DNA of 57,379 bases, filler included, from Dugesia japonica (lineage: Eukaryota): assembly GCA_001938525.1 (NCBI GenBank). It is 5 parts of 5 records of this genome, joined end to end, with 100 filler letters (N's around TTAATTAATTAA, not from the genome) between each part and the next. Parts side by side here need not be neighbours in the genome. Positions count along the whole stretch, not along the records: positions 40,162 to 48,300 come from MQRL01648148.1; 4 more parts are not named here. One strand, written 5' to 3'. The position numbers and the translations under genes were made by a program. Positions 46,219-47,239 of the stretch are shown one piece after another (position 1 is the first letter of the stretch; every line of letters starts with the position of its first letter). The notes under the pieces are model-generated. The model saw only the letters and a program-made list of their open reading frames with translations. It made no database searches and was not told the origin of the DNA.

Positions 46219-46375
46219 AATTTACTTTACTTTGAAATGAAAATTAATAATTGTTTCGTTCTTTATAACCTACTTTAAGATTTGCATGCATTTGTTAAAT
46301 GAAAATTCTGTTAAATATATATTAAATTCAAGAAATGTATTGCGTGTCCAGTTGTTCATAGTATTAATATTTCAG

Positions 46376-46734
46376 TGCATTCCTCTTTGAATAAATCACA
46401 GGCCCTGAATAAAAAACTGCGGGAAACCAAGGAGGACTTCGAACTCACTTGGGATTTGTATCGGCTGGCAAAACGTCGATAGGAGGCGGAAATAGCCACC
46501 ACCAACCATAAAGTATCTCGTTATAAGAAGAAATGTATCGCTTTCAAAAAGGAAGCCGAGGCATCCCTCTTGCAGGAGCGAACCTGGAAGAAACAGGTTG
46601 AATCTTTTTCGTAGATAATACGGTCTAGCCATGACCGAGAGAACCAACTGGTTAACGACATTTTACTTGTCCCAAAAAAAATACCTCTTGAGCCATTGAT
46701 GATCGAGAAGGGCACCCAAACACATCGGGCTTAA
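46376..46734 (+). pseudogene. LTR cassette D
   Basis: ttcAG|TG CAT TCC; two stops; ends PLEPLMIEKGTQTHRA*; AATAAA at 46753. Confidence 0.7.
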
Positions 46735-46858
46735 TATGAATTAACTTTTATAAATAAATCAATTATTCAATCGTTTTTATGAGTTCAGATTTTTTATCCT
46801 AATGTTTTACCTAAGCTTCGCTGTTTAGTTGCCTTTATACTAATCTAATTTCTTTCAG

Positions 46859-47239
46859 TGCCTCGTATCACTTTTCCTAACAGTCTCCACCGGTGTCACT
46901 GTATAATGCGCCGCCTGCTAGTTGAGCGTCATTTAAAGCGGAAAACGGATAAAGCTCTGCTTAAACATCTGAATCACCGAGATAGTCTCATTAAAAATCT
47001 TGATAACATACTAAAGAAACAGTGATTTAGCAGCACAAACCAAGGCTCTGGAATCCGAAACCAAACAACTGTTGCAAAGGAAAATAGATTTCCTAAAACA
47101 ATACATAGCTGACCTTTCCCGCAAGATTGGCAATCCAACTTGGGTCCAATGGGACAACAATAACGACGTCGCCGCCTTTAATTTTACGGTAACGGATCCA
47201 ACTCAGTGGTTAGTCCCAGGAGCTCTGGATCTGATGTAA
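46859..47239 (+). pseudogene. LTR cassette E
   Basis: ctaat..ttcAG|TG CCT CGT; one frameshift near 47022; AATAAA at 47251. Confidence 0.75.

Follow-up and report, generated by a model that had tools for sequence, protein, structure and literature searches.

In the genome of Dugesia japonica, two small coding exons, denoted here cassettes D and E, lie within what is likely an LTR and lack an ATG at their 5' ends. Judging from the DNA, their AUG is probably completed by splicing in cis, the final A of an AUG-free leader being joined to the TG that directly follows the acceptor of each cassette.

The window analysed is a stretch of 57,379 nucleotides (assembly GCA_001938525.1) that consists of five joined parts; the N runs around TTAATTAATTAA at 9146-9245, 23774-23873, 40062-40161 and 48301-48400 are spacers. 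The eukaryotic DNA is AT-rich and holds two host genes (integrin alpha and SAC3/GANP) amid decayed mobile elements, as follows.

6233-8749: integrin alpha, one 838-codon frame
21784-23171, minus strand: SAC3/GANP gene with two short introns visible and exon ends C and A (by eye)
27091-32841, minus strand: decayed element of Gypsy type that encodes, in this order, a zinc knuckle, a Monjiviricetes-type fusion env, RNase H and integrase

After an LTR-like end at 32841 comes a PBS-like stretch starting with TGG. A second repeat family, starting TGTTGGGCTAG, is represented at 26620-27101 (minus strand) and 39031-39520 (plus strand), the two being 67% identical over 381 columns. By eye, the ORF pieces at 24410-25279 and 40114-40865 (both minus strand) resemble parts of a Polinton capsid and polymerase, and had no Pfam match above the cut-off. 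Near-identical duplications across gaps (51184-52060, 52990-53497, 54572-55066 and 55501-55970) are probably assembly artefacts.

A dispersed unit that resembles a solo LTR

The cassettes belong to a dispersed unit, with three copies in the window and 681 contigs of set X1 aligned to the window.

43056..47489, plus strand: copy 3, the whole unit, 4,434 bp, a probable solo LTR with the ends TGTTGGGG...CCCCAACA
1..1539, plus strand: copy 1, the 3' part of the unit, with the end of cassette C, D (TG at 410), E (TG at 906) and the conserved end
33849..34897, plus strand: copy 2, with three CCAAT boxes, TATAAAA at 34179, a leader at 34200-34409 ending A|GTGAGT and the conserved end, without cassettes
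47320..47489, plus strand: conserved 3' end, with stem-loops predicted in three copies

Copy 3 has TG...CA ends with a short terminal inverted repeat (TGTTGGGG at 43056 and CCCCAACA at 47489), and its flanks, CGTA and CTTA, match at three of four positions, that is, form an imperfect 4-bp duplication. Two contig joints of set X1 run from 47489 to 43056, with 4 and 19 letters in between (depths 14.6 and 35.8), which supports these positions as the true ends of the unit. The 4-letter joint would fit either the junction of a two-LTR circle or a head-to-tail insertion with a 4-bp target. From the left, the unit encompasses CCAAT boxes and a TATA box, a 263-nt ATG-free stretch, cassettes 0, A, B, C, D and E, and a 170-nt end; an acceptor-like site precedes each cassette and AATAAA follows most of them. 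Given its termini and the imperfect 4-bp duplication, the sequence at 43056-47489 is most likely a solo Gypsy-type LTR that would house a promoter and a leader along with about six cassettes of small ORFs. Beside the three copies, we found neither a PBS or PPT nor a linked gag-pol. A low-complexity repeat of a single family (D10) flanks copy 3 on both sides.

The two copies with cassettes are 72% identical (1-1539 compared with 45850-47489). The 170-nt end (47320-47489, 1372-1539 and 34727-34897) is the best conserved part of the unit, and its predicted stems display two-sided changes in 6 of 39 predicted pairs, a count drawn from three sequences only. X21 reads of related copies cover this end in both directions. 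No Rfam match was found for it, the Rfam search having returned one chance match, and a search with the end motif retrieved one viral and seven metagenome loci, all unrelated beyond the motif.

Promoter block and candidate leader

43524..43723, plus strand: promoter-like block, four CCAAT boxes and TATAAAA at 43717
43740..44002, plus strand: candidate leader exon, without ATG, with an A before the weak donor GTAAAA; start placed by the TATA box

The promoter block is 61% identical to 33849-34186 over 345 columns. The candidate leaders contain no ATG in 263 nt (copy 3) and 210 nt (copy 2), a property shared by 214 of 10,034 windows of the former length and 417 of 10,268 of the latter, and by 7% and 1.7%, respectively, of 2,000 dinucleotide shuffles. 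On its own, a leader devoid of AUG provides no start.

The sequence-only reading placed an A before GT at the ends of both leaders, 34409 and 44002. The coordinates are right, but the match means little by itself because A precedes 15 of the 39 GTRAGT sites in the window. Copy 2 has a single full-consensus donor, located at 34409 (A|GTGAGT); the one at 44002 (A|GTAAAA) agrees with two of the four consensus positions after GT and is absent from the nine donor-like sites of copy 3, where the last base is A at three, C at three, G at two and T at one. Both full-consensus donors of copy 3 upstream of E (44333 and 45169) end in A. We rejected 44333 as the leader donor, the exon 44150-44333 holding four ATGs; it is possibly a second A-ending donor. 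Similarity between the leaders of copies 2 and 3 is not significant, with 71 of 500 shuffles scoring as high, and a strong leader donor and cassettes occur together in no single copy: copy 2 is devoid of cassettes, copy 1 of the leader, and the donor at 44002 is weak.

Coding constraint in cassettes D and E

44150..44294, plus strand: cassette 0, acceptor at 44149, a 47-codon Cys/His-containing frame beginning AG|G; single copy, putatively coding
44659..44796, plus strand: cassette A, 45-codon ORF with ATG at +1 after the acceptor at 44657; single copy
45585..45780, plus strand: cassette B, ATG at +3 after the acceptor at 45581; AATAAA at 45786
45868..46218, plus strand: cassette C, ATG at +2, 116 codons, one in-frame stop
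46376..46734, plus strand: cassette D, AG|TG, 118 codons after TG, two in-frame stops; AATAAA at 46753
46859..47239, plus strand: cassette E, AG|TG, about 126 codons, in-frame ATG at codon 17; AATAAA at 47251
4021..4329, plus strand: diverged E-like ORF, 49% identity, 5' end unclear, Asn in place of Met17 of E

The cassettes other than D and E had been described as having an ATG within 3 nt of the acceptor, which holds for A, B and C (+1, +3 and +2) but fails for cassette 0, which begins AG|G, has no start at the junction and carries a strong donor, ACCA|GTAAGT, at 44333. Cassette B changes frame near 45670-45690, E is frameshifted near 47020-47040, and the comparison of C with copy 1 reveals a third-position excess. 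The low-complexity stretch between A and B (44840-45570), which has little contig cover and holds the donor-like site at 45169, is possibly an insertion.

As the sequence-only reading maintained, AG|TG opens both D and E in the conserved frame, with ttag|TG at 410 and 906 and tcag|TG at 46376 and 46859. All four sites are thus T-rich YAG|TG, and the frame that starts two bases past the acceptor, reading HSSL.. in D and PRIT../PHIN.. in E, is the conserved one. The AG|TG motif alone is common, given that 11 of the 203 acceptor-like sites in the window (5.4%) have TG directly behind them and that a looser filter yields 43 AG|TG sites. Its phase is unusual, as is its position in two cassettes at the boundary of constrained coding sequence; the chance of TG falling in the right phase in two cassettes is roughly 0.5%, allowing for the choice of 2 of 6.

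Constraint was gauged by counting the changes between copies 1 and 3 at codon positions 1, 2 and 3. In E, the counts are 1/4/9 over codons 2-16, with 9 of 14 changes at the third position (P=0.017), and 10/7/27 over codons 17-55 (P=1e-4); in D, they are 15/15/30 over codons 2-51 (P=0.006), codons 2-13 alone giving a non-significant 4/5/8 (P=0.17). Coding constraint extends to codon 2, as seen over codons 2-16 of E, although codons 2-13 of D are not significant on their own. Ungapped identity between the copies of D rises from 5/15 just before the acceptor to 12/15 just after it; for E, 3/15 positions match at -30..-16, against 11-12/15 over -15 to +29.

Without splicing, codon 1 is GTG at all four sites, with in-frame stops upstream. 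In D of copy 3, the first in-frame ATG is 323 nt downstream; D of copy 1 has one at +41 that is absent from copy 3, and the G of this codon is missing in most of the related contig depth (85.8 of 96.8 in set X15 and 17.5 of 30.8 in set X2). The codon-17 ATG of E (+47) is in frame in both copies. Thus, the start of D and E must come from upstream, because D has no shared nearby ATG, the codons of E ahead of its ATG are constrained, and the E-like ORF has Asn in the place of Met17.

D appears to be open in the family because related contigs mostly differ from the window at both of its stops, with differing depths of 21.8/21.8 and 44.2/55.2 in X2 and of 115.2/115.2 and 153.2/164.8 in X15. No difference at either AG|TG was seen among the 40 of 153 difference rows listed for related contigs. 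Related contigs retain the D acceptor, their alignments beginning at 46368, eight bases before it (five contigs of X2 and seven of X15).

Other E-like sequences occur in the window. A gag-like reading, made by eye over 3430-4329, runs straight into the diverged E-like ORF. We considered this ORF as a retro-copied spliced product and rejected that possibility, its upstream DNA being no closer to the leaders than shuffles (110, 249 and 253 of 300). An E-like fragment at 38522-39030 (minus strand; E=0.001) is cut by another LTR-like end. A T-rich AG|TG lies at 38792 on the minus strand, where the longest frame, of 86 codons with ATG at +12 and AATAAA after it, is in phase 0, and the A|TG phase spans 45 codons; this frame may be a cassette of another lineage that falls outside the A|TG rule.

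Proposed completion of the start codon by splicing

Among the leader endings tried (A, C, G, T and ATG), A alone provides each of the cassettes A to E with a first AUG that is in frame and opens the full-length ORF; cassette 0 gains no in-frame start from any of them. The claim that A+TG makes the initiator stands as the best reading of the DNA, given the AUG-free leaders and the constraint that reaches codon 2, but the two leader donors are candidates, the similarity of the leaders being non-significant and the site at 44002 weak. In the mechanism that we propose, RNA from the TATA promoter would start with an AUG-free leader ending in A, to be cis-spliced onto a cassette acceptor. About six cassettes would serve this leader as alternative last exons, each having a poly(A) signal of its own; A, B and C would use their own ATG, and D and E the A of the leader plus TG. 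A broader reading, namely, that the LTR is a multi-gene unit in which one AUG-free leader serves about six alternative last exons and contributes the first base of the start codon to two families without known relatives, strikes us as plausible, if somewhat short of an even chance.

Part of the case for the leader comes from the poor fit of spliced leaders (SL). As had been argued beforehand, and correctly so, a flatworm SL ending in AUG would be out of frame for D and E, and this is the case in both copies. Across the array, an SL-type ATG would be in frame for B but for none of the other five cassettes; no alternative AG in the vicinity of D or E would allow an in-frame start of the SL type in the two copies alike.

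These frames bear on a reading that we consider improbable, in which the array is an operon-like unit, either SL trans-spliced or unspliced, and D and E start at a near-cognate codon (GUG) or by re-initiation. The spacing from AATAAA to the next acceptor is 79, 105, 117 and 130 nt in four pairs, close to the median intercistronic distance of 99 bp that the accessible portion of one study gives for operons of S. mansoni (PMC12582326), and the GTG that stands as codon 1 at all four sites in unspliced RNA would supply the near-cognate start. However, the flatworm SLs reported in that portion of the study end in ATG (PMC12582326), which would not match the frame of D or E; upstream of the array there is a TATA promoter with a cis donor, and the operon reading still needs a non-AUG start for D. 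We give just as little credence to the possibility that D and E are second exons, for which a phase-1 donor in an upstream coding cassette supplies the AUG together with a 31-residue basic peptide, the junction G|TG being read as Val. The sequence-only reading had named 45678 (CAAG|GTGAGA) in cassette B as such an alternative donor, and it is indeed a true phase-1 site with an ATG open 31 codons upstream, the top-scoring GT in the unit and one of only two among nine donor-like sites that have an open upstream ATG in phase 1; moreover, the first frame of B stops three codons after it. The site nevertheless sits where B changes frame, and B appears to run on to its own AATAAA by way of a second frame (EHLDETDLCC...), so that the donor may be a feature of the damaged copy 3; furthermore, a Val formed freely at the junction would not require TG to be kept in two unrelated cassettes.

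Slightly less probable than either of these is that the TG is incidental, E starting at codon 17 and D at a lineage-specific ATG or not at all, with the post-acceptor bases conserved as splice signals. The in-frame ATGs of E (+47, both copies) and of D in copy 1 (+41), the abundance of AG|TG (43 sites) and the decay of all copies in the window are compatible with this reading. Against it stand the third-position excess ahead of the codon-17 ATG of E, the lack of Met at the corresponding place of the diverged E-like ORF, and the constraint on D over codons 2-51 in spite of the 323 nt without an in-frame ATG in copy 3; besides, a start of E at codon 17 leaves D unexplained.

Compared with these alternatives, the A-ending leader is the reading that we prefer, and it suggests a simple origin for the split starts. 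With a leader that ends in A, a cassette could dispense with the A of an ATG next to its acceptor, and once this had happened, the last base of the leader would become locked. It had been suggested that the arrangement keeps the ORFs silent in unspliced RNA. This part of the claim is unsupported, because the 45 ATGs that precede D and the 51 that precede E (counted in unspliced RNA from the candidate start to the acceptor) would stop scanning ribosomes anyway and because A, B and C keep their own ATG. We infer that the split starts represent a neutral ratchet more than a silencing device.

Transcript, protein and literature searches

Three raw RNA runs, of each of which 6-25% was sampled, yielded 18, 75 and 14 aligned reads, none of which covered D or the part of E beyond 46903, and no read across a splice junction onto D or E was found in them. 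Five contig sets (X1, X2, X4, X6 and X15), of guessed or unknown kind and apt to show presence, not absence, were inspected for splicing: no GT..AG joint at 46376 or 46859 was found among the contig joints listed (15 of 18 and 4 of 4), and no loose ends at these positions among those listed (16 of 326 and 24 of 125).

Protein searches with E and D, which took in billions of predicted proteins, gave no match among nine and four candidates, respectively. The E profile had no hit at E<=0.001 in 1.84 billion representative proteins and none in the PDB, and C, D and E correspond to no Pfam family above the cut-off. The proteins encoded by D and E are probably helical accessory factors. By eye, E reads like a basic region followed by a zipper. 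In a literature search of partial coverage, which took in few subscription papers or bioRxiv supplements, we found no report of split starts or of arrays of spliced ORFs in the LTRs of planarians, nor of such an array with A|TG starts in any LTR.

Implications

Genes that start by A|TG are invisible to gene finders and ORF scans because these need an ATG. Should the proposed model be correct, accessory genes would lie hidden in a high-copy LTR, in the manner of complex retroviruses, and would be spread by solo LTRs without gag-pol, each solo LTR being a portable regulatory-gene cassette whose translation hangs on one exact splice. The family would also offer a test of the locking of a splice site to a start codon, as the last base of the leader is expected to be fixed only in lineages with TG-starting cassettes.

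Comparison with known systems

The adenovirus major late unit likewise joins one leader to alternative downstream acceptors with separate poly(A) sites; the virus is unrelated, and the resemblance is one of layout only. Small accessory ORFs are also found in Drosophila elements of the MDG1 group, which, in the part of the source available, have small sORF1 and sORF2 upstream of gag and an internal poly(A) site (PMC11952523); those ORFs are two in number, unspliced and equipped with their own starts. The planarian giant Gypsy-like elements Burro and GYPSM1 carry accessory ORFs in the internal region, as far as the accessible description goes, and a mononegavirus-like env between gag and pol (PMC6431247), in contrast to the proposed spliced array in the LTR here. 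The neighbouring element at 27091-32841 (minus strand) has env between gag and pol, that is, the Burro-like order (PF24664, E 1.5e-24), and is a candidate owner of the LTR, but the link is doubtful because the homology of copy 2 stops at 33849 and a zinc-knuckle fragment intervenes. On account of the former, copy 2 was rejected as the 5' LTR of this env-bearing neighbour.

Three systems share with the reading proposed for D and E a start that depends on splicing. Flatworm SLs donate their 3'-terminal AUG whole and in trans, according to the accessible parts of two reports (PMC9851317, PMC12582326); the likeness is that the start of the ORF depends on a spliced-on leader, and the difference is that, for D and E, the AUG of an SL would fall in the wrong frame. 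In Epstein-Barr virus, the initiating Met of EBNA-LP is created by alternative splicing (bioRxiv 10.1101/176099, as available in part), again a splice-made Met in a transcription unit with many spliced products; that case concerns one protein of a DNA herpesvirus and was shown by experiment, whereas ours is read from DNA. Closest is env of the springer subclade of Drosophila errantiviruses, for which the accessible part of the source describes a start codon AU|G completed by splicing, with mapped junctions (bioRxiv 10.1101/2023.08.03.551782). As proposed for D and E, which have neither a complete ATG at the ORF start nor an upstream in-frame start, an ORF of an LTR retroelement has its start completed by a leader piece spliced to an acceptor. 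There, however, AU|G serves one env gene downstream of pol, and no such AU|G split before env was found here, where A|TG would serve two genes without a known family inside a probable terminal repeat. Splice-completed starts are already known from springer env and EBNA-LP; the A|TG start proposed here, within an array borne by a probable LTR, is likely real.
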